Part shown: piece by piece, positions 2,562 through 42,992 of the stretch | Position numbering within the stretch: position 1 is the first letter of the stretch | Layout of the letters: every line of letters starts with the position of its first letter | DNA from: an uncultured Eubacteriales bacterium | GTDB lineage: Bacteria > Bacillota > Clostridia > Lachnospirales > JAISER01 | DNA: 64,000 nt | Direction of reading: 5' to 3' | NCBI GenBank assembly: GCA_964545475.1 | Contig: CAZJGG010000001.1 | Coordinates: 6,173 to 70,172 of the forward strand | Position numbers and translations under genes: made by a program | The notes under the pieces: model-generated | Told to the model about the DNA's origin: nothing | Databases searched by the model: none | What the model saw: the letters and a program-made list of their open reading frames with translations, nothing else

Positions 2562-3494
2562 ATGAACGGTGGTGACGAATTGAATTTTGAAACAGAAGTT
2601 ATTTGTTTTTATGATTGGCTCGAAACAAACTCCGTGGGATCATCTTCCATCAACTTATGGTTTGCGCTATTGCATACATGGTTTAAAGCAGGATGCCCAG
2701 TAGAGTTTGCGGTGGCTATATCTGTTTTAGAAACAAAAACTGGATTAAAGAAAGATGCTATATATGATGCAAGAAATAAATTGCAACAAGTGGGAAGGGT
2801 GTTGTGGCGTGAAAGAAAGGGTAATCAATCGGCAATGTACAAAATTGTGTCTTTTATTACGACACAGACAGTTTGTATCGGAAATACCGACACAAACACC
2901 CACACGAAACCCACGCAAACACCCACGCAATACCCCACGCAAGTACCAACCATTATTAGTAGTAGTAATAGTAATATATATAATAATACTCCTACTAATA
3001 ATGTATCGGAAATACCGACACAAACACCCACGCAGACAGTTTGTATCGGAAATACCGACACAAATACCCACGGAAAGCCTTTAGAAGATGATGGTACTTG
3101 CAATCCATTTATCCACTATCAAAGGCTTTTCGGAGTATTGCGCCCATTAGCCGTAGAAGAAATTAAAGACTATTCGGCGCAAGGGCTGGAAGATAAACTT
3201 ATTTGTTTAGCAATGGACAGAAGCCACGAAAACGGCGCTGGACACTGGAATTATGCAAAAAAAATACTAGACAGATGTGTTTTTGAAAAGGTTCTAAATG
3301 TTGACGTTTTTCTAGCGAAAGAAGAAGAATTTCGGGCTAAAAAAACTATAAAAATAAACAAAGATAGTCAGCAGTCTGTAAAAAGCAAATTTGCCAATTT
3401 CTCTCAGAGAGATTGGAATTATGAAGACATTGAGCGCAAGAGTCAAGAGGCATTAATACAGGAGTTTAATAACAATATCGGTAATCAACAGTAG
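2562..3494 (+). CDS. Replisome organizer / replication initiator with C-terminal DnaD (DnaB_2) domain
   Basis: N-terminal wHTH-like region, T/Q/P-rich linker encoded by the iterons, C-terminal FIHYQRLFG...EEIKDY...GHWNYAKKILDRC DnaD-like domain. The start may instead be TTG 2580. Confidence 0.7.
   Translation: MNGGDELNFETEVICFYDWLETNSVGSSSINLWFALLHTWFKAGCPVEFAVAISVLETKTGLKKDAIYDARNKLQQVGRVLWRERKGNQSAMYKIVSFITTQTVCIGNTDTNTHTKPTQTPTQYPTQVPTIISSSNSNIYNNTPTNNVSEIPTQTPTQTVCIGNTDTNTHGKPLEDDGTCNPFIHYQRLFGVLRPLAVEEIKDYSAQGLEDKLICLAMDRSHENGAGHWNYAKKILDRCVFEKVLNVDVFLAKEEEFRAKKTIKINKDSQQSVKSKFANFSQRDWNYEDIERKSQEALIQEFNNNIGNQQ
2865..3071. repeat. Iteron-like direct repeats flanking an AT-rich block: putative phage origin of replication inside the initiator gene
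   Basis: 29-bp unit tgtatcggaaataccgacacaaaYaccca at 2873-2901, 3002-3030 and 3043-3071. Copies 1 and 3 extend to 38 bp with cagacagttt. ACCCACGCAA sub-repeats at 2909-2942. AT-rich tract at 2951-3001. Confidence 0.6.
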
Positions 3495-3498
3495 GAAG

Positions 3499-4302
3499 GT
3501 GAGTAACGTTAAAGGTGACATTAACCATAGCAATGAGTTTATAGGGCTAATCAACAAGCTTTCGCAAAAATACAGCTCATGGAAAGTATTTGAGGATTTC
3601 CTTGCAATGTCTGCAATTTCTATAAGTAATGCTATTGATTGGGTTCACCGAGAGCAAAGAGAGGCGGAATATCTCTCTATAGTCGAAAGGTACACAAAAG
3701 AAGAAATTGATATGTTTCCGAAAATGCTTGCCCACATCATAGAGGAACTTGAAAAACACGCAGAATATCCTGTAGATGTTTTAGGAAAAATATTCCATGA
3801 GCTTGAGCTTCACAACAAATACAAAGGGCAGTTTTTCACCCCACAGCATATATGTGATTTTATGGGTATGGCAGCTTTAGACGAACATGATCCTGACATT
3901 GAAAAAAAGGGTTACATAAGCCTTTGCGAGCCTTGCGCAGGCAGCGGTGCCATGATTCTTGGATTTGCAAAGGCAATGAAGAATAACGGGTACAGTTTTA
4001 ATACGCAAATGGTTGTAAAAGCAACGGATATTGACATCAAATGCGTTCACATGTGCTACTTACAGCTTAGCCTATATGGCATACCTGCGGTGGTGGTACA
4101 TGGAAACACACTATCTATGCAGGAGTGGTCCAGATGGTACACACCGGTTTATATGATTGACGGATGGGCATGGCGGAGAATAAGTGAGGATAATCAAGAT
4201 AAACAGCAGATGAATAACGAACAAACCAGCGAAAAACACAAGTTTTATTTCACATTTAACCTAGATAATTTAACAAAAGAATCACAGCTAAGCCTATTTT
4301 AA
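3499..4302 (+). CDS. HsdM/N6-MTase-like SAM-binding protein lacking the catalytic (N/D)PP(F/Y) motif; C-terminal QLSLF
   Basis: Motif X QFFTPQHI, motif I EPCAGSG, motif II-like ATDIDI and HGNTL are present. No NPPF/NPPY follows. The protein ends KESQLSLF*. Confidence 0.6.
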   Translation: MSNVKGDINHSNEFIGLINKLSQKYSSWKVFEDFLAMSAISISNAIDWVHREQREAEYLSIVERYTKEEIDMFPKMLAHIIEELEKHAEYPVDVLGKIFHELELHNKYKGQFFTPQHICDFMGMAALDEHDPDIEKKGYISLCEPCAGSGAMILGFAKAMKNNGYSFNTQMVVKATDIDIKCVHMCYLQLSLYGIPAVVVHGNTLSMQEWSRWYTPVYMIDGWAWRRISEDNQDKQQMNNEQTSEKHKFYFTFNLDNLTKESQLSLF

Positions 4303-4320
4303 ACGATTGGAGGTCTTTAA

Positions 4321-4761
4321 ATGAAACAGGAAGCAATAAAGAAAATTACTGAAAGTTTGCAGGGCATTGAGGAAAAAAGAGTTCCAGCAGAACCGATTGC
4401 AGAGTTTCTAAAAAATAAATGTGAAGATGAAGAGTTTGCCACCCTTGTTATGCAAGAACATAAAAGTCTTAAAAGATGCTTGGATTTCGTTTATGAACAG
4501 GCAAGAAAGCATTTAGACGGTGCAAACGGTTGGATTGATGATAATGACGTTTATATGATGGCCGTTGATTATTTTGCATTAGATGACGAAGAACTAGAGC
4601 GCAAAAAAGCTGAGGAAGAAAAGAAACTTGAAGAGGAACGCAAACAGCGTGATGTAGAAAAAAAGAAGAAACAAGCTGAAGAAAAGGAAAGTAAAACCAA
4701 GGAATCCAAACAACAAGCAGCTGCTAAAAAAGTTGCTGAAAATCAATTATCGCTGTTTTGA
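4321..4761 (+). CDS. PcfK-like protein with Lys/Glu-rich tail; C-terminal QLSLF
   Basis: Size, KSLKRCLDFVYEQARKH..NGW.DDNDVY..AVDYF pattern and adjacency to a PcfJ-like gene. Family assignment is from memory. Ends AENQLSLF*. Confidence 0.5.
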   Translation: MKQEAIKKITESLQGIEEKRVPAEPIAEFLKNKCEDEEFATLVMQEHKSLKRCLDFVYEQARKHLDGANGWIDDNDVYMMAVDYFALDDEELERKKAEEEKKLEEERKQRDVEKKKKQAEEKESKTKESKQQAAAKKVAENQLSLF

Positions 4762-4776
4762 TGGAGGTAATGTCAT

Positions 4777-6744
4777 TTGGATAAGAAAGAGTTAAAGCTG
4801 CTCAAGATAGAGCAGCTCCCAAACACTATTGAGACGTCGCAAATCTCTGATAGTATGAAAATTAGATATGCCTTTGTAGCAAAAAAGCATAGCCTAGGGA
4901 AAGAGCAAATATTAGAAGTAATCTTCTTTTCCCTTTATACCAAGATAGCAGAATTTAGAGTGTTTTTCAATAAAAATTTATTTATTACAGAGAAATTAAA
5001 CCCAGAACGCTGCTGGTCTGAAAGCACAATTGAAAACTTAATTTGTGCGTGGAACACCGGAATTGTATGCGCCAATGAACATTCCAAGGAGCTTATATGC
5101 AAGTATTTTAAAACGGAGGAAAATCCTTACAAAGCAATGCGAGAATTCCAGGCGAAACTAAGAAAAACACAATTAGCGCAGCGTCACAAGAAAGAGACAG
5201 ATAAAATAGATGCACATATGAAATTGATGCCAAGCCTGCCTAAATATTTTGAAAGATGGGTCAATGAAGTTGCGCTTAACAAAAGCCGGTATATCTACTA
5301 CAAAAAAGTCACCTCAAATAAGATGGAGGGTTTTTGCACATCGTGTCTTTCAAACGTTACTTATCATATTTCAAAAAACAATCAATTCAAGGACGTGCGC
5401 CACAACCAACCTGGCAAGTGCCCGTTGTGTGGCAACCGTGTTATATATAAAGCCGTAGGAAAGACGACATTACTAGTTGATTATGTTAATGCGGCTATTA
5501 TACAAAAAACTAAAAAGGGCTTGGTTGTTAGGTATTTTGCCGTAACTAAGGAATATAAGGGTCATTATAAAAACCCCACGCTTCACATCCATGAACAGGT
5601 GCGGGATTTTTATGAAGACGGTCAATGCATTACCTATGAATACAACAATTACAAGCAAACCGGGCGTTTAAGATGGTGTTACAGCGCTAATAGGTTTAAC
5701 CCTTACAATGCGTGTTTGTATACCCGAAATTTAAGGCGTGTCTTAAACGATACAGAGTGGAAATACAGCTGCATATATGAATTAGCAAAAAATATGGATA
5801 ATTTCAATGTGGACATGTACCTTAGGGCTTATAAAAATTACCCAGTATATGAATACCTTATCAGGCTTAGATTATTCAAATTGGTTGCTGAAAACACAAC
5901 GGGTTATAGGTACAACAGCGAGATTAATTTAAATGGCAACGGTATAAATGAAGTTCTGGGCATTGACAAGCTAATGCTTAAACAGCTACAGCGGATTAAT
6001 GGATCAATTGAACACTTGGCGCTTTTAAAGTTAGCCTATAAGGCGACCATATATCTAAAAGACGATGAAATAAACTGGGTGGTTAAAAATGGGGTTAATG
6101 CTGACAATTTTGTAAAATTACTTAAATACACCACGGCTCACAAGGTCATTAAATACGTCGAAAACTGTTGTGTAACAATGAAAAAACAGCTTAAAGCGGA
6201 CGATGGGTTTTTCGCATACGGAAGCCCACAAGCAAACATTGTAAACGACTGGAGAGATTATCTCGAAAATAGCGCATTACTAGGATACGACCTAAAAAAC
6301 AGTATGCTGTTATTTCCAATGGATCTAAAATCACGCCATGATGAGGTGGTAGTGCGGATTAATGCCGAAAGTAACGAGCTCTTTAACAAAGCTATTATTG
6401 AAATGTCAGAGAAACTAAACTCAAGGTTCGGATATAAGGGCAAATCTCTTATTATTTACGCACCAAGGTCCGCTGATGAAATTATAGCTGAGGGACATGC
6501 ATTGCATCATTGTGTGGGAGGCAGATTATATATTGAGGGAATGGCTAAAGGCGAACACATCATTTTGTTTATTCGCAGGGTCACTCAACCGGATGAGCCA
6601 TTTTATACAATTGAGATTAAGGATAACATTGTAAACCAGTGTCGGGGAAAAAATAACCACGGAATGACAGATGAAGTAAAGCAATTCATTTCTGAATGGC
6701 AGAAAAAGAAGCTGAAAGTTAATAAAACTGATAAAAGCGCATAA
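4777..6744 (+). CDS. PcfJ-like protein
   Basis: C-terminal EGHALHHCVGGRLYIEGMAKGEHIILFIR...PFYTIEI...IVNQCRGKNN resembles the PcfJ-like domain. CxxC...CPLCG zinc ribbon mid-protein. TTG start with GGAGG RBS. Confidence 0.6.
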   Translation: MDKKELKLLKIEQLPNTIETSQISDSMKIRYAFVAKKHSLGKEQILEVIFFSLYTKIAEFRVFFNKNLFITEKLNPERCWSESTIENLICAWNTGIVCANEHSKELICKYFKTEENPYKAMREFQAKLRKTQLAQRHKKETDKIDAHMKLMPSLPKYFERWVNEVALNKSRYIYYKKVTSNKMEGFCTSCLSNVTYHISKNNQFKDVRHNQPGKCPLCGNRVIYKAVGKTTLLVDYVNAAIIQKTKKGLVVRYFAVTKEYKGHYKNPTLHIHEQVRDFYEDGQCITYEYNNYKQTGRLRWCYSANRFNPYNACLYTRNLRRVLNDTEWKYSCIYELAKNMDNFNVDMYLRAYKNYPVYEYLIRLRLFKLVAENTTGYRYNSEINLNGNGINEVLGIDKLMLKQLQRINGSIEHLALLKLAYKATIYLKDDEINWVVKNGVNADNFVKLLKYTTAHKVIKYVENCCVTMKKQLKADDGFFAYGSPQANIVNDWRDYLENSALLGYDLKNSMLLFPMDLKSRHDEVVVRINAESNELFNKAIIEMSEKLNSRFGYKGKSLIIYAPRSADEIIAEGHALHHCVGGRLYIEGMAKGEHIILFIRRVTQPDEPFYTIEIKDNIVNQCRGKNNHGMTDEVKQFISEWQKKKLKVNKTDKSA

Positions 6745-6906
6745 GAGAGGGGTAATTAATATTAAGTCAACTAATTTTAATACATTTGATAAATCAACAT
6801 TATGCAGAATGATTATAAATACTGTTCGTGCAGCTAAAGGTTTGCCTCCACTTAAGAGTAAATGTGTCGGGCAATCTTCTGAAAGCAAAAAGGGGGAGGT
6901 TTAACA

Positions 6907-7205
6907 TGGCTAAAGTAAAAAACGGCTATGAAGCTTTGATTACAAGAGAACAATTTAACGAACTTAGGAAAATGGATAGGGTAGAAACAGAGGCTTTTCT
7001 AAGGGTTATTTTTGAAAAAGGTTATACCAAAGGATATAAGGAAGCCGAAATCAAACTTTGCGAAGACTCTAGAGTAAGTAAAAAGGCAAACATTAGGGGT
7101 GAAATTGTTTCTTTTCTTTCCTCAATACCAGGTTTTGGACCAGCAACATTGCGAAAAATAAAAGAAGCCTTGGAAAAGTGGTGCGAACCAGATGTCGTAC
7201 AATAA
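6907..7205 (+). CDS. Small helix-hairpin-helix DNA-binding protein, hypothetical
   Basis: GGGGGAGG RBS 7 nt upstream of ATG 6907. IPGFGPATLRKIKEAL HhH motif. The upstream extension to 6828 has no RBS. Confidence 0.5.
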
Positions 7206-7307
7206 GCTACCCCCATCAAATAGAGGCTTAAATTTAATTTAAAACATAAGTATTGCCTGAAAAGGGTTACTTACACTATTAAAAAGGTATTGTTGATTGA
7301 GGTGTTA

Positions 7308-7350
7308 TGCATGGTTAAGACAGATTTATTAGCTTTGATGTGCATGGTTA
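7308..7350. repeat. Direct repeat tgcatggtta x2 spaced 33 bp apart, in the 220-nt gap upstream of dnaN
   Basis: tgcatggtta at 7308-7317 and 7341-7350, each followed by an agat(a)tttatt-like tail. Function unknown (operator or centromere-like candidate). Confidence 0.35.
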
Positions 7351-7425
7351 TGTTGGTAAAGATATTTATTTATTTTGCAAAAATTATGTTTAAACTAGCA
7401 ATCAATAAAATAGGGGGCAACAAAG

Positions 7426-8532
7426 ATGGATATAAAAATAGAAAAAAACACGTTACTTAATGGGCTTAACATAGTTTTAAAGGCTGTCAGTTACAGTAGT
7501 GTTATGCCAATATTAAAATGCGTATTGCTTAACGTTGAGGAAAGCGGCTTAAGGCTTACAACTAATGACTTGGAATTATGCATAGAAACTAAGGCACTTG
7601 ATGCAGATATTGAACAAACAGGTAAAATAGCCGTGGAAGCAAAGCTTTTCGCTGAGATTATAAAAAAACTGCCAGATGATTATGTGCAAATATTAACAAC
7701 CGATAAGCTTGAGGTAGAAATAAAAAGCGGAAAATCAAAATTTAAAATTATGGGTCAAGACCCTGAGCAATTCCCAGCACTTCCAGAAGTTATAAAAGAC
7801 AATAAGTTTACAATTGATCAGGGAACTTTAAAAGACGTGCTAAGACAAACATGCTTTTCAATTGATGCTGAGGCACAAAAAGCAGCTTTTACCGGTGAAC
7901 TCTTCGATATTTCCAAAAGTGAAATTAACTTGGTTTCTTCCGACGGATTTAGAATATCTCATCGTAGCCTTGAAGTTGATAAGACCGACTTAACATACAG
8001 TACAATCATTCCAGGCAAATCTATAATTGATATTATGAAAATTTTAGAAACAAGCGACAGCAAGGCAAATATATACTTTGAGAAAACATATGCTCTTTTT
8101 GACCTTGAAACATGTAAAGTCATTACAAGAGTAATTGCAGCAGATTTTATTGATTACCAAAATTTTTTTAATGCTGAATATTCAACTCTTGTTAAATTGA
8201 ATACAGAAGATTTTATTAACTGCGTAGATAGAGCCTGTATTGTAGCCGAAACTAATAAAAAAACACCTGTAAAGCTGGATATAAAAGATAAAAGCATAGC
8301 TATAACATCTCAAACACAGGTTGGTAATGTTTACGAAGAAATAAATGCCGATATTGACGGCAACTGTTTAACAATCAGATTTAATCCAAGGTACTTAATG
8401 GAAGCATTAAGGGCTATCGAAGATGAAGAGGTAACGATACAGTTTAGCTCATCACTTACACCATGTATTATACGTCCTGTTGATAGCGGTAATTTTGAAT
8501 ATTTGATTCTGCCGTTAAGATTGGAAAATTAA
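7426..8532 (+). CDS. dnaN: DNA polymerase III beta subunit (sliding clamp), phage-encoded
   Basis: 368 aa, collinear with bacterial DnaN (N-terminal ..NIVLKAVS....PILKCVLL...LRLTTNDLEL.., FPALPEV, SSDGFRIS). Confidence 0.85.
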   Translation: MDIKIEKNTLLNGLNIVLKAVSYSSVMPILKCVLLNVEESGLRLTTNDLELCIETKALDADIEQTGKIAVEAKLFAEIIKKLPDDYVQILTTDKLEVEIKSGKSKFKIMGQDPEQFPALPEVIKDNKFTIDQGTLKDVLRQTCFSIDAEAQKAAFTGELFDISKSEINLVSSDGFRISHRSLEVDKTDLTYSTIIPGKSIIDIMKILETSDSKANIYFEKTYALFDLETCKVITRVIAADFIDYQNFFNAEYSTLVKLNTEDFINCVDRACIVAETNKKTPVKLDIKDKSIAITSQTQVGNVYEEINADIDGNCLTIRFNPRYLMEALRAIEDEEVTIQFSSSLTPCIIRPVDSGNFEYLILPLRLEN

Positions 8533-8550
8533 TAAACAAACCATTAAAGG

Positions 8551-8805
8551 TTGATGTTTATGGACAAATTGGACTATGCAATATTAGATGTATTGTTAAA
8601 TACTTTTGGAGCTGTTACAAGGATGAAATCTGTAACTTTAAAAGTTATTTTAACTGAAATACAAATTAATGATAGAACTCTCTATCGTAGATTAAAAAAT
8701 CTTTTGATTAGAAACTATATTTTAAAAGGCATTCAAGATATTAGAGAACACACATATTACATCAGCGAACATGGAATGAAAATATTAGAGGAGGCTTTGA
8801 AATGA
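8551..8805 (+). CDS. Small winged-HTH DNA-binding protein (TubR-like candidate)
   Basis: 84 aa wHTH-like (LKVILTEIQINDRTLYRRLKNLLIRNYI). Overlaps the downstream tubulin-like gene (translationally coupled). Confidence 0.5.
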   Translation: MMFMDKLDYAILDVLLNTFGAVTRMKSVTLKVILTEIQINDRTLYRRLKNLLIRNYILKGIQDIREHTYYISEHGMKILEEALK

Positions 8806-9836
8806 AAGAAAGTATTGGATTTATAGCTGTAGGGCAAGGCGGTGGGAATATCGGCACTCTGCTTGAAAAAAACGACTATAACGTTTTATACCTCAACACC
8901 TCACTTGAGGACTTAGATACGTTAAAAACCTCGAAATTTAAACACCACATTAAAAACGGCGAAGGCTGCAACAAAGATAGGGATAAAGCAAAAGAACTTA
9001 TCATCGGAGATTTTGAAGCCATATCAGAGCAAATTAAGTCTAAGCTTCAGGAAGAATACATCTATGTTATTTTTAGCGCAGGAGGCGGCACCGGCTCTGG
9101 TGCTTCCCCAATGCTTGTTGACTTACTCATTAATAATACTAACAAAAAAGTCGGTGCTATAACTATACTTCCTGCAAAAACAGAGCCCCTCAAAACTTAT
9201 ATTAACTCTTACGAATGCTTTAAAGAACTTGAAAGCATTGAAAATATGTGCTGTACATTTATCCTAGACAATAATACCGGAGACAAACTTTCCATTAACA
9301 AAACATTTGCAGATTTATTTGAATCATTTATTGAAATACCACAATTTAAAAGCGTTAAGGGCAATATAGATAAAGCTGAAATTAAAGAGCTCTTGTCAAC
9401 CAGGGGAGCAGCCCATATATGCAAGCTTGGCAAAACAACCAGCTCAACACCACGGCTTATAAGCACAATTAAGGAAAACATATTTGCCCCTCTTGAGCCT
9501 GATAAAGTAATAAAATACATGGGCATTTCAACCGTGACCAACATTGATACTGATGCTCTCATAAAGGAATTTGGTTCATGCTTGGACATTTACCAAAGCA
9601 CAAACCAAATACATACCGTGTGTATGCTTTGCGGTCTATCATTCCCCTACTCTACGCTAGAAACCATAAAGTCCAAAGTAATGTCTTCGCAAGATGACAT
9701 TACCCGAAATTTAAAAGCCACACAAGAAAATAAACTTGATGATGATATTAATTTTGTTAATCGTATAACCACTAACTCTACTATAGCACCAAAATCTGAT
9801 ACAAAGGATATTTTTGCAAAATACCGGCGCAAGTAA
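8802..9836 (+). CDS. Tubulin/FtsZ-superfamily GTPase (TubZ/PhuZ-like)
   Basis: GQGGGNIG (aa 11-18) and the tubulin signature GGGTGSG (aa 94-100, nt 9081-9101), followed by ILP..T and DNN loops in FtsZ/tubulin order. Confidence 0.75.
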   Translation: MKESIGFIAVGQGGGNIGTLLEKNDYNVLYLNTSLEDLDTLKTSKFKHHIKNGEGCNKDRDKAKELIIGDFEAISEQIKSKLQEEYIYVIFSAGGGTGSGASPMLVDLLINNTNKKVGAITILPAKTEPLKTYINSYECFKELESIENMCCTFILDNNTGDKLSINKTFADLFESFIEIPQFKSVKGNIDKAEIKELLSTRGAAHICKLGKTTSSTPRLISTIKENIFAPLEPDKVIKYMGISTVTNIDTDALIKEFGSCLDIYQSTNQIHTVCMLCGLSFPYSTLETIKSKVMSSQDDITRNLKATQENKLDDDINFVNRITTNSTIAPKSDTKDIFAKYRRK

Positions 9837-9856: not shown

Positions 9857-10696
9857 ATGAACAAAACAAAGATAGATTGGTGCGATATGAGTTGGAATCC
9901 TGTTACTGGATGTTTACATGATTGTACATATTGTTATGCAAAAACAATAGCTAAACGGTTTGGAGGGCACAGTGATTTTGATTATTTTATAAACCATTTG
10001 GACGAAAAAGGTAATTATGTATCTGATGAATGCAAACTCCATGTTATTGAAGATGCAATGGTGAAACAAAGCTCGGATTTGGAGGGGCGTATCGCTCCAT
10101 ATCCATTTGAGTTTGAGCCTACATTGCATAAATATAGACTAAGTGAACCTCAAAGAAAAACTAAGTCTCAGAATATTTTTGTTTGTAGTATGGCTGATTT
10201 ATTTGGTGATTGGGTGCCGGACGAGTGGATACAAGAGGTTTTTGAAACTTGCGAAGCTGCACAGCAGCATAGGTATTTATTTTTAACAAAAAATCCTAAA
10301 AGGTATTACGAAAGCATAAGCAAAATAAGATTCCCCGTTCTTCAAAATTTCTGGTTTGGCATGACAGTTACAAGTAATATAGAGCTAATACGCAATTTTA
10401 ATAATCTAGAGAGAATGAAGCCTTTCAAAACCTTTCTAAGCATTGAGCCATTACAAGAAGACATTACTCGTTTTCATGATTATAAAATTACTTTCGATTG
10501 GGTTATCATTGGCGCAGAAACCGGAAACCGAAAGGGCAAGGTTATTCCTAAAAAAGACTGGATTGATAACATTGTTAGGCAGTGTCGCAAGTATGACGTT
10601 CCTATTTTTATGAAGCGTGGCGAAAAGCAAAAAGATGGTACATATTTTATGGAAAACTTAATGGGCGCAGATTTTGTTCAGGAATTTCCGTGGTAA
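9857..10696 (+). CDS. Phage Gp37/Gp68 family protein (DUF5131), three-Cys CX3CX2C motif
   Basis: N-terminus KIDWCDMSWNPVTGCLHDCTYCYA is typical of this family. C19-x3-C23-x2-C26 lies at nt 9911-9934. Confidence 0.75.
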   Translation: MNKTKIDWCDMSWNPVTGCLHDCTYCYAKTIAKRFGGHSDFDYFINHLDEKGNYVSDECKLHVIEDAMVKQSSDLEGRIAPYPFEFEPTLHKYRLSEPQRKTKSQNIFVCSMADLFGDWVPDEWIQEVFETCEAAQQHRYLFLTKNPKRYYESISKIRFPVLQNFWFGMTVTSNIELIRNFNNLERMKPFKTFLSIEPLQEDITRFHDYKITFDWVIIGAETGNRKGKVIPKKDWIDNIVRQCRKYDVPIFMKRGEKQKDGTYFMENLMGADFVQEFPW

Positions 10697-14040: not shown

Positions 14041-15165
14041 ATGGAACTAAATGAACTAACAAAGGTTATACTTACAGCAGGTTACAGTCCAGACGAAACG
14101 CCGCCATGGTGCAGAGAATACAATAAGTTTTATGGCGGATGGACTTACCATTATAAAATTGCTTATAGTCTTGTGTTTGAAACGCCGTGCGGATTGCTGT
14201 ATAAATTTAACACTTTGGGTATATACAGTTATCAGGGCGTTAATTGGATGCTTGAAAATAACAACCCTGTTGTATGCTGCCCAAAATTTGACAATGGAAA
14301 CTGTCTACTTAAAAATCCCTTACTTAAAACCAACAACTTGTCAAGCTCCAGCGGAACAATAAGAATGTGTGCTTGTCATTTAGCCAATAAGCCTTATGAT
14401 TATGAAAATAGCTTAGATAAGGCACATGATTTGGTTGACCAAGAAGCTGATAGCCTCTTTGAAGAATTTAAATTAGCTAAAAGTGGCAAGGTCTGCAAGC
14501 ATCACAGCACATATAACCGCACAGAGAAAAGATGGAGAATGCATTTTTACCCATTAACATGTGGCGATTGGTGTACATATTGTGATGTTTTAGGAAAAGA
14601 GCTTAACAGAAAAAAAGGCAACGTGTTTTATGACCTCAAAACAACACGTACTAAACCTGCAGAAGGTTTGTTTCCGTCAGAAACGGTCGTACATATTACA
14701 AAAGGGATAAAGTTTTTAAACGAGACAAAATCTTTAGATATATGTGCGATAATAGCAAAATGCGGTAAGCATCTAATTTATAACCATGAACGCAGTAAAT
14801 TACATAGAGATTTATTTACAGACAAAAGTTTTGCATTTAAGATATTAAATATAAGAGCAGTTCGTGTTGATAAAAGAGATATGCTACAAGACCTGCAGGA
14901 CGTTGCAAATGGGATCACAGTGAATCATAAATCTGACCTACTAAAAGTCTCAAAGGAACAAAAACGAGCTAGAAAACAGGCAAGAATAAAGCAAAAAATC
15001 AATAAGTATGAAAAACTTATACTTAGGATTGGCTTTAATAATCTTCCAGACCTGGCGCAAATAAGCTGTATTAAATGGCTAGGAGAGGAACGAATTGAAG
15101 AGATTGAATTTGTCAGGAGAGCAGAGAGAAGTAGTAATACGTTTGAGCAATTGACATTAGTTTAA
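14041..15165 (+). CDS. Cys-rich hypothetical protein ending EQLTLV
   Basis: AGGTG RBS. 374 aa with many Cys/His pairs. C-terminus resembles a degenerate clamp-binding motif. Confidence 0.5.
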   Translation: MELNELTKVILTAGYSPDETPPWCREYNKFYGGWTYHYKIAYSLVFETPCGLLYKFNTLGIYSYQGVNWMLENNNPVVCCPKFDNGNCLLKNPLLKTNNLSSSSGTIRMCACHLANKPYDYENSLDKAHDLVDQEADSLFEEFKLAKSGKVCKHHSTYNRTEKRWRMHFYPLTCGDWCTYCDVLGKELNRKKGNVFYDLKTTRTKPAEGLFPSETVVHITKGIKFLNETKSLDICAIIAKCGKHLIYNHERSKLHRDLFTDKSFAFKILNIRAVRVDKRDMLQDLQDVANGITVNHKSDLLKVSKEQKRARKQARIKQKINKYEKLILRIGFNNLPDLAQISCIKWLGEERIEEIEFVRRAERSSNTFEQLTLV

Positions 15166-42245: not shown

Positions 42246-42992
42246 ATGGATAGCTTTATAGCATGGGTGGGCGGTAAAAAGCTTTTACGCAAAGAAATTT
42301 GCAGCAGATTCCCCCAAAATTTTAATAAATACGTTGAAGTTTTCGGAGGTGCGGCATGGGTTCTATTTCACAAAGAAAACCATGCAGACACTGAAATTTA
42401 TAACGACCTAAACAGCAATTTAACCAACCTTTTTAAATGCGTTAAATATCATTCCAACGCTATTGGTGAGGAGTTAGAACTTGTTTTAAATTCAAGAGAC
42501 TTTTTTAATGATTTTAAATGTCTCTATAACGTTGATACACTCACCGATATTCAAAGGGCAGCGAGATATTTATATATGATAAAGGCAAGTTATGGCGCAA
42601 AAGTCACTACATATGGCGGTAAAACCAGAGATATTACCAATACCGATTTTTTAAAAACGGTTAAAGAGCGCTTAAAACACGTTATAATTGAAAACAAAAG
42701 CTTTGAAAAAATAATTGAACAGCACGATGCCGAAGATACTTTATTTTATTGCGATCCGCCTTACCACGGGGCAGAAAAATATTATGGATTACAATTCGCC
42801 GATGAACAGCACAGTCTTTTAAATAAATGTTTAAGTGACATTAAGGGGAAAGTTATTGTTTCATATAATGATTGCGAGTTTATCGAACATCTTTACAAGG
42901 GATGGAACATTGATAAAATCCAGCGTTCAAATAACCTTTCTCTAAAAGCAGAAAATAAGACTTATAAAGAACTTATAATAACTAATTACTAA
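42246..42992 (+). CDS. dam: DNA adenine methyltransferase (Dam / D12 class), orphan
   Basis: N-terminal FIAWVGGKKLL, FGGAAWV (SAM-binding) and the DPPY catalytic motif. Confidence 0.85.
   Translation: MDSFIAWVGGKKLLRKEICSRFPQNFNKYVEVFGGAAWVLFHKENHADTEIYNDLNSNLTNLFKCVKYHSNAIGEELELVLNSRDFFNDFKCLYNVDTLTDIQRAARYLYMIKASYGAKVTTYGGKTRDITNTDFLKTVKERLKHVIIENKSFEKIIEQHDAEDTLFYCDPPYHGAEKYYGLQFADEQHSLLNKCLSDIKGKVIVSYNDCEFIEHLYKGWNIDKIQRSNNLSLKAENKTYKELIITNY

Follow-up and report, generated by a model that had tools for sequence, protein, structure and literature searches.

Proteins of mobile elements that make use of a sliding clamp are already known, among them the plasmid initiator TrfA, the transposition protein TnsE, the transposases of insertion sequences (IS) and of the Tn3 family, MuC and Mor of phage Mu, and gp33 and gp55 of phage T4. 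In this study, we analyzed three genes of an integrated myovirus-type prophage, which lies within a window of 64 kb (64,000 nucleotides of contig CAZJGG010000001.1 from an uncultured Eubacteriales bacterium, to which all coordinates given without a locus name refer) and whose products carry C-terminal peptides resembling those bound by the bacterial beta clamp, DnaN. Judged from sequence, what appears to be new is the membership of their families, an HsdM-like family, PcfK and a third family, in this group. TnsE of Tn7 binds the beta clamp, T4 gp33 and gp55 use gp45, which is T4's own clamp and not a DnaN protein, and eukaryotic DNMT1, an active C5 methyltransferase, is tethered to PCNA behind the fork by a PIP box. 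As for DnaN itself, the C-terminal motif QLSLF of Bacillus subtilis PolC binds it with a dissociation constant of ~7 uM (PMC12309361), and the QLSLF at residues 134-138 of the RK2 initiator TrfA binds beta (PMC8034659). MuC and Mor act through the clamp motifs QHDLF and QPDLF, on which phage function depends (PMC12867686), while IS transposases and Tn3-family TnpA are described as exploiting the beta clamp (PMC3971601, PMC4549789, PMC11417375). Orphan methyltransferases are enriched in plasmid leading regions, according to a survey that does not mention the clamp (PMC11541004).

The genes concerned here, together with the neighboring genes of PcfJ and of a clamp, are listed below; the names that the sequence-only reading had given to the HsdM-like protein, PcfK and DnaN agree with the Pfam matches.

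3499-4302, plus strand, HsdM-like protein of 267 amino acids (partial match to Pfam N6_Mtase; PHROG 5696)
4321-4761, plus strand, PcfK-like protein of 146 amino acids (Pfam PcfK)
4777-6744, plus strand, PcfJ-like protein of 655 amino acids, without a clamp tail (Pfam PcfJ, E 1e-34)
7426-8532, plus strand, DnaN beta sliding clamp of 368 amino acids (three Pfam DnaN domains; TIGR00663)
14041-15165, plus strand, cysteine-rich protein of 374 amino acids, ending in QLTLV

Translation confirmed the starting observation that two adjacent proteins end in QLSLF with differing codons and that a third early protein ends in QLTLV. The HsdM-like open reading frame (ORF) terminates in ...LTKESQLSLF (QLSLF encoded at 4285-4299), the PcfK ORF in ...KVAENQLSLF (4744-4758), and ORF 14041-15165 in ...NTFEQLTLV (QLTLV at 15148-15162). 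QLSLF matches the clamp consensus QL[SD]LF twice, and QLTLV is a weak variant of it. The codons of the two QLSLF tails (cag cta agc cta ttt in the HsdM-like gene versus caa tta tcg ctg ttt in pcfK) differ at 5 of 15 bases, which rules out duplicated DNA as their source. In the six frames of the window, QLSLF occurs at 2 sites only, each right before a stop, and the looser pattern QL[SDTE]L[FLIV] at 4 sites, three of which are these C-termini; the remaining one falls in an open frame of 17 codons. From the amino-acid composition of the 55 long plus-strand ORFs of the prophage, the probability that a given C-terminus reads QLSLF is 5.7e-7, with an expected count of 3e-5 among the 55 and a probability of ~5e-10 for two or more. 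We consider it likely that the tails are genuine beta-clamp-binding motifs, which would dock their proteins on clamps left on newly synthesised phage DNA or on the incoming conjugative strand.

Compared with the described clamp clients, the HsdM-like protein and PcfK have the identical pentapeptide at the same extreme C-terminal position as PolC, but PolC is a replicative polymerase, whereas the tailed proteins are prophage-encoded and have no polymerase domain. TrfA is likewise a protein of a mobile element that engages the host beta clamp by QLSLF; its motif, however, is located inside the protein and functions in assembling the replisome at oriV, whereas here the motif is a C-terminal tail on proteins without Rep homology. 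MuC and Mor resemble them as small phage proteins with terminal, family-conserved clamp motifs, one handle being placed on two proteins of a phage, but are DNA-binding transcription factors with near-consensus motifs; for the three tailed proteins, Pfam, NCBIfam and PHROG gave no match to Mor/MuC, sigma factors, co-activators or transcription factors. Sharing of one clamp handle by two proteins of a phage is also seen in T4 gp33 and gp55, where the clamp is the non-DnaN gp45. The clamp-binding transposition proteins show that mobile elements use the conserved cleft to find replicating DNA; those are target-choosing recombinases, whereas the tailed proteins here are not transposases. DNMT1 on PCNA offers a parallel in which a methyltransferase-type domain sits on a sliding clamp, as is proposed for the HsdM-like protein, although in the latter only half of the fold is present and catalytic motif IV is missing. 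A literature search found no link between the clamp and PcfK, PcfJ, the short "N-6 DNA methylase" proteins or the third family, in line with the sequence-only reading, which knew of no description of such tails, and the words methyltransferase, methylase, plasmid and transposase are absent from a 2024 review of the beta clamp.

To follow the tails across homologues, clamp-type motifs in penta- and hexapeptide forms were counted within the last 25 residues. The results showed such motifs in 102 of the 120 top-ranking HsdM-like homologues (with forms including QLSLF, QLTLF, QIRLF and GQLSFDF), in 156 of 176 PcfK-family proteins and, as a Q[LIM]x[LIM]F-type motif, in 86 of 118 homologues of the 14041-15165 protein, where many others carry near variants (QTSLF, QISLSDL); shuffling the same tails gave ~5 matches per set. 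Conservation of a C-terminal QLxLF, which had been proposed as a check on the initial idea, was thus borne out for all three families. Since the tail is kept in the family of 14041-15165, the QLTLV of the window is a weak copy of a conserved tail. Among 28 close homologues of PcfK, the glutamine is invariant and the tail is found in 27, with Q-[LIM]-S-L-F at or a few residues from the C-terminus and preceded by a spacer rich in Lys/Glu whose length varies. A PcfK profile search of 1.84 billion representative proteins returned 1,817 family members, and among the best 148 at <=50% mutual identity the motif lies in the last 20 residues of 125, the remainder being mostly truncated fragments. In the pooled PcfK tails (n=153), in which the Q was fixed by the search pattern, S (90) and D (57) together account for 147 at position 3, and F for 139 at position 5. 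Taken over all positions, the tails read Q / L, M, I / S, D / L, M, I / F, which is the published QL[SD]LF consensus, and linkers vary in length and sequence among homologues while the motif stays.

Because queries containing the tail could bias such searches, a genome scan was seeded solely with two motifs from inside the HsdM-like core. In the 80 loci of this tail-independent scan, 43 of 78 HsdM-like ORFs and all 6 PcfK ORFs had the strict motif within their final 14 residues, as did 9 of the 2,315 other ORFs of >=100 amino acids. Each of these 9 neighbors an HsdM-like gene, and they represent at least three additional small families that are unrelated. The tail is a trait of protein families, not of one phage.

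The motif keeps the same form in loci of Clostridia, Alpha-, Beta- and Gammaproteobacteria, Acidobacteria, Campylobacterales and Bacteroides, and it sits on unrelated folds; such constancy across phyla fits a universally conserved host target. No dnaN is present within 10 kb in 39 of the 43 tail-bearing HsdM-like loci, and profile searches found neither pcfK nor pcfJ within 10 kb in 39 of the 43. The same holds for the cultured Faecalibacterium phage FP_Taranis, whose gp23 is a tailed copy ending in GQLTFF with no dnaN, pcfK or pcfJ nearby. As partner genes are mostly absent nearby while the motif is constant, an element-encoded partner is unlikely and a conserved host protein is indicated. 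These comparisons indicate the host clamp as the default target and the phage's own DnaN as an optional extra. Of the earlier suggestion that the proteins use the phage's own or the host clamp, the host clamp thus gained ground as the default, whereas the neighboring phage dnaN did not hold as a general partner. PcfJ was considered separately as a ligand of the tails and was rejected, since pcfJ is missing from those 39 loci. Tail-bearing versions also occur on plasmids and other elements, namely pCAR1 (L085 6938-7786, QIALF), with which the plasmid-relative loci L092 and L095 are grouped, a Xanthomonas MOBF plasmid (QLTLF) and a Bacteroides element (QLTFDF).

The prophage clamp is full-length and scores 255 bits against TIGR00663 (cut-off 137.65), its nearest solved structures being the clamps 7ybd (E 4e-85) and 3t0p. 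In comparison with E. coli beta, whose numbering is used, the positions that line the peptide cleft according to established structural knowledge are either conserved or replaced conservatively; for example, G174, R176, N320, Y323, P363, R365 and L366 are kept, and hydrophobic residues occupy positions 155, 177, 247, 344, 360-362 and 364. With its cleft intact, the phage clamp should accept the same tails and also the tail of host PolC, and phage DnaN is a candidate platform for docking in addition to that of the host. In this phage lineage (the window and loci L007, L009, L020, L037 and L082), dnaN lies ~0.5-3 kb after pcfJ; the linkage is a feature of the lineage and no requirement for the tail.

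The three prophage proteins appear to share one build, in which a folded domain leads into a spacer, either flexible or a rigid helix, and then into a terminal Q-L-S/T-L-F/V peptide. In the mechanism we propose, this peptide would occupy the hydrophobic domain II-III cleft of a DnaN protomer, by default the host's and possibly the prophage's own too. Docking would concentrate the tailed proteins where clamps were just loaded, that is, on replicating phage DNA and, for the plasmid relatives, on newly converted conjugative DNA, and the HsdM-like protein, PcfK and PcfJ would operate there as one unit. Both physical binding to the clamp and action on nascent DNA are what we infer from these comparisons. 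Their job at the clamp might, speculatively, be to protect or mark nascent mobile-element DNA against host restriction or repair, a guess suggested by the early or leading-region position and by the S-adenosylmethionine (SAM)-binding domain of the HsdM-like protein. HsdM-like relatives share both annotation and location with the orphan methyltransferases of leading regions; as the family has no catalytic motif, an anti-restriction role, if any, would not be simple methylation. A more far-reaching idea, which we put forward tentatively and hold to be rather doubtful, is that a portable docking tail was gained independently by many unrelated phage and conjugative proteins (HsdM-like, PcfK, that of ORF14041 and, next to HsdM-like genes of Acidobacteria, Alphaproteobacteria and Campylobacterales, a minimum of two or three small families) and forms a clamp-tethered establishment toolkit. 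Its HsdM-like/PcfK/PcfJ unit would be coupled to replication and would modify nascent mobile-element DNA or shield it from restriction or repair by the host, much as if DNMT1-PCNA had a bacterial equivalent with a SAM-binding domain that lacks motif IV.

Some observations weigh against docking on the clamp. The tail of the third protein in the window ends in V, structure and sequence searches with the folded domains yield no hint of an activity that requires a clamp, and the protein searches had the tail in the query or profile, a small possible bias that is offset by the tail-independent scan. Furthermore, a sizeable minority of HsdM-like relatives have no tail, including the abundant versions of enterobacterial IncF/IncI and Acinetobacter plasmids, which prevail among the plasmids sampled from these groups, and this implies that the HsdM-like domain can work without it. 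One of them is a tail-less gene of a pKpQIL-type IncFII(K) plasmid of Klebsiella (L086 7863-8696), which is flanked by psiA and traM and belongs to the leading region; the plasmid-relative loci L087, L093 and L094 are grouped with it.

The main rival to tethering is that the tails fill clamp clefts and displace host clients (PolC, DnaE, MutL, translesion polymerases, initiation regulators), so that host replication or repair is slowed or clamps are redirected, the phage's own dnaN compensating for the titration. Competition is physically plausible, as the tails equal the C-terminal motif of PolC, overproduced MuC is toxic via its clamp motifs (PMC12867686), and the prophage lineage encodes three tailed proteins together with its own dnaN shortly after pcfJ. 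We nevertheless regard blocking as improbable, because conjugative plasmids, on which these families are frequent, need a healthy host, because each tail is attached to a large conserved domain and a long spacer that would be superfluous for a simple plug, and because a clamp gene does not accompany the tail in 39 of 43 tail-bearing relatives; tethering and competition are, however, mutually compatible. The tail might instead be addressed to another partner, such as PcfJ or another protein of the element, or be a degradation or export signal that merely resembles a clamp motif. The gene order and fusions that link the HsdM-like protein, PcfK and PcfJ make a shared docking site on PcfJ conceivable. 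But pcfK and pcfJ are lacking around most tail-bearing HsdM-like genes, FP_Taranis gp23 has its tail without any of these genes nearby, a motif recognized by an element-encoded partner would co-evolve with it rather than stay constant over phyla and at least three unrelated families, and the S/D preference at position 3 with near-universal Q and F is the clamp consensus, which makes this explanation very improbable. A functionless coincidence of chance or composition has nothing in its favor except the shortness of the motif. Against it stand the expected count in the prophage, the differing codons, which rule out DNA duplication, and the ~5 shuffled matches versus 86-156 observed; this conservation refutes it, and its probability is next to nil.

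Docking on the clamp, if correct, would offer the first testable clue to the role of PcfK, PcfJ and the short "N-6 DNA methylase", which are among the commonest proteins without assigned function in conjugative elements and temperate phages, in that a conserved clamp handle would tell where and when many such proteins act, namely on freshly replicated DNA. A methyltransferase-like domain would join the list of bacterial clamp clients, and a reason is suggested why some prophages carry their own dnaN. Were the toolkit idea true as well, plasmids and phages would depend for their establishment on the clamp cleft, which is a known drug target.

The HsdM-like protein had been taken in the sequence-only reading for a methylase remnant, a description that did not survive. 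A core of ~225 residues is conserved in at least 1,289 proteins, the family corresponds to PHROG 5696 (function unassigned), and it is found on 2,123 PLSDB plasmids, 1,479 of which are conjugative; with so large a family and a conserved core, a decayed methylase pseudogene was ruled out. A scan of viral contigs for the protein gave no match. Relatives are annotated as "N-6 DNA methylase", but the Pfam N6_Mtase match is partial, aligning residues 105-211 with profile positions 21-121 of 311, and the NCBIfam hsdM score is 25.6 bits versus a cut-off of 242.75. The AlphaFold2 (AF2) model has a predicted local distance difference test (pLDDT) score of 87 overall and <50 for residues 242-267. It places a helical N-domain and a four-stranded SAM-binding half of a Rossmann fold at residues ~10-240, a disordered linker at 242-262 and then the QLSLF end, with four strands only instead of the complete seven-stranded methyltransferase fold. 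Foldseek and profile searches gave only weak partial matches to type I and type IIG methyltransferases; in Foldseek, PacII M and HsdM matched weakly, at template modeling (TM) scores <=0.43.

The near-invariant or invariant columns of the family are the SAM-binding motifs GQFFTP and EPCxGSG and the acidic motif ATDID (motifs X, I and II), and the domain probably still binds SAM. The catalytic motif IV, (N/D)PP(Y/F/W), is absent from the window protein and from the family consensus; at its position, after strand 4, the sequence is W-Y-T-P-V-Y (T-P-x-Y). Given the absence of motif IV, the four strands and the widely missed hsdM cut-off, we did not file the protein as a methyltransferase, and on its sequence motifs it cannot be a conventional N6-adenine methyltransferase. 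As a side observation, a contig binned as a Methanomicrobiales archaeon (L042 10007-10810) has an HsdM-like gene whose tail, QYEALSLFDE, differs from the motif seen in bacteria; either mis-binning of the contig or a variant proper to archaea could account for this.

PcfK matches Pfam PcfK (PF14058) with 47.6 bits (cut-off 27) over profile positions 8-137 of 139. Its AF2 model consists of a small helical domain (1-86) and a single long Lys/Glu-rich helix (89-141), followed by the C-terminal QLSLF. Foldseek of this model against the PDB found no match (best E 1.6), and phmmer of PcfJ against PDB sequences returned noise only. In the viral-contig scan, PcfK was detected at two loci, both on one contig. 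The gene order HsdM-like/PcfK/PcfJ is shared by L007, L009, L020, L037 and L082, and natural fusions join HsdM-like with PcfK (P0142, P0342) and PcfK with PcfJ (P0325). The fusions and the fixed gene order indicate that the three proteins act together, presumably as one functional unit. Many PcfK-family proteins have N-terminal extensions of 100-250 residues without a Pfam match.

Pfam, PHROG and NCBIfam gave no match for the 14041-15165 protein. In other loci, small tailed ORFs of at least three families unrelated to PcfK adjoin HsdM-like genes:

L043 10778-11272, small tailed ORF
L058 12746-13219, small tailed ORF
L059 12256-12771, small tailed ORF
L047 10596-10910, small tailed ORF
L074 4853-5185, small tailed ORF
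L084 9456-9806, small tailed ORF
L033 16499-16969, small tailed ORF

Their endings are QLSLF, QLVLF, QLALF, QMSLF, QLNLF or QLSIF (in Acidobacteria, Alphaproteobacteria, Campylobacterales and Clostridia), and Pfam found nothing in them except one weak DUF488 match. The two adjacent tails first noticed are both real, and the phenomenon extends beyond them to at least three families in the prophage and to further small ORFs in other phyla.

The tailed genes of the window are part of a replication/recombination module of tightly packed plus-strand genes, the other members of which are:

134, plus strand, RecT
1201, plus strand, metallo-beta-lactamase-fold protein
1920, plus strand, HNH nuclease
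2562-3494, plus strand, DnaD-like replication organiser (PHROG 186 DnaD-like helicase loader, E 9e-25; Pfam DnaB_2)
6903, plus strand, small helix-hairpin-helix protein
8551-8805, plus strand, small helix-turn-helix (HTH) protein
8802-9836, plus strand, tubulin-like protein (Pfam Tubulin; PHROG "tubulin PhuZ"; GGGTGSG signature)

The stop codon of the DnaD-like gene lies 4 nt upstream of the HsdM-like start, and this position directly upstream puts the tailed genes into the replication operon. Neither a polymerase nor a primase nor a replicative helicase was found among the scanned prophage ORFs of the window, as had been stated before, the left end of the prophage lying beyond the window edge. 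Megablast of 3000-9000 against GenBank phages gave no match, and relatives of the region are mostly from Clostridia. Within the DnaD-like gene, a 42-nt direct repeat, ACAGACAGTTTGTATCGGAAATACCGACACAAACACCCAC, is present three times (79-95% identical) at 2862-3071, accompanied by shorter ACCCAC-rich repeats, and the array encodes a recurring TQTVCIGNTDTNTH peptide. As the array is iteron-like, the phage replication origin may sit inside the organiser gene. The HTH protein and the tubulin-like protein form a TubR/TubZ-like pair in an integrated prophage. Next to them, the DUF5131 (phage Gp37/Gp68) protein at 9857-10696 shows similarity to "radical SAM mobile pair protein A", with a score that stays under the cut-off of TIGR04471, and downstream of it are ORFs matching only PHROG families with no assigned function.

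The remainder of the prophage comprises the following genes:

18748 and 19551, small and large terminase
20816, portal
25257, major head protein
28775, sheath
31348, tape measure
37796, baseplate
43401 and 43850, holin and endolysin

Host genes, among them those for a two-component system, an alanyl-tRNA synthetase and an aspartase/fumarase-type lyase, begin at ~46.7 kb, and the G+C content of the window is 37%. In the late region, just upstream of the holin and endolysin genes, 42246-42992 encodes a D12-class (Dam-like) N6-adenine methyltransferase, so that the prophage owns a conventional methylase besides the HsdM-like protein without motif IV.

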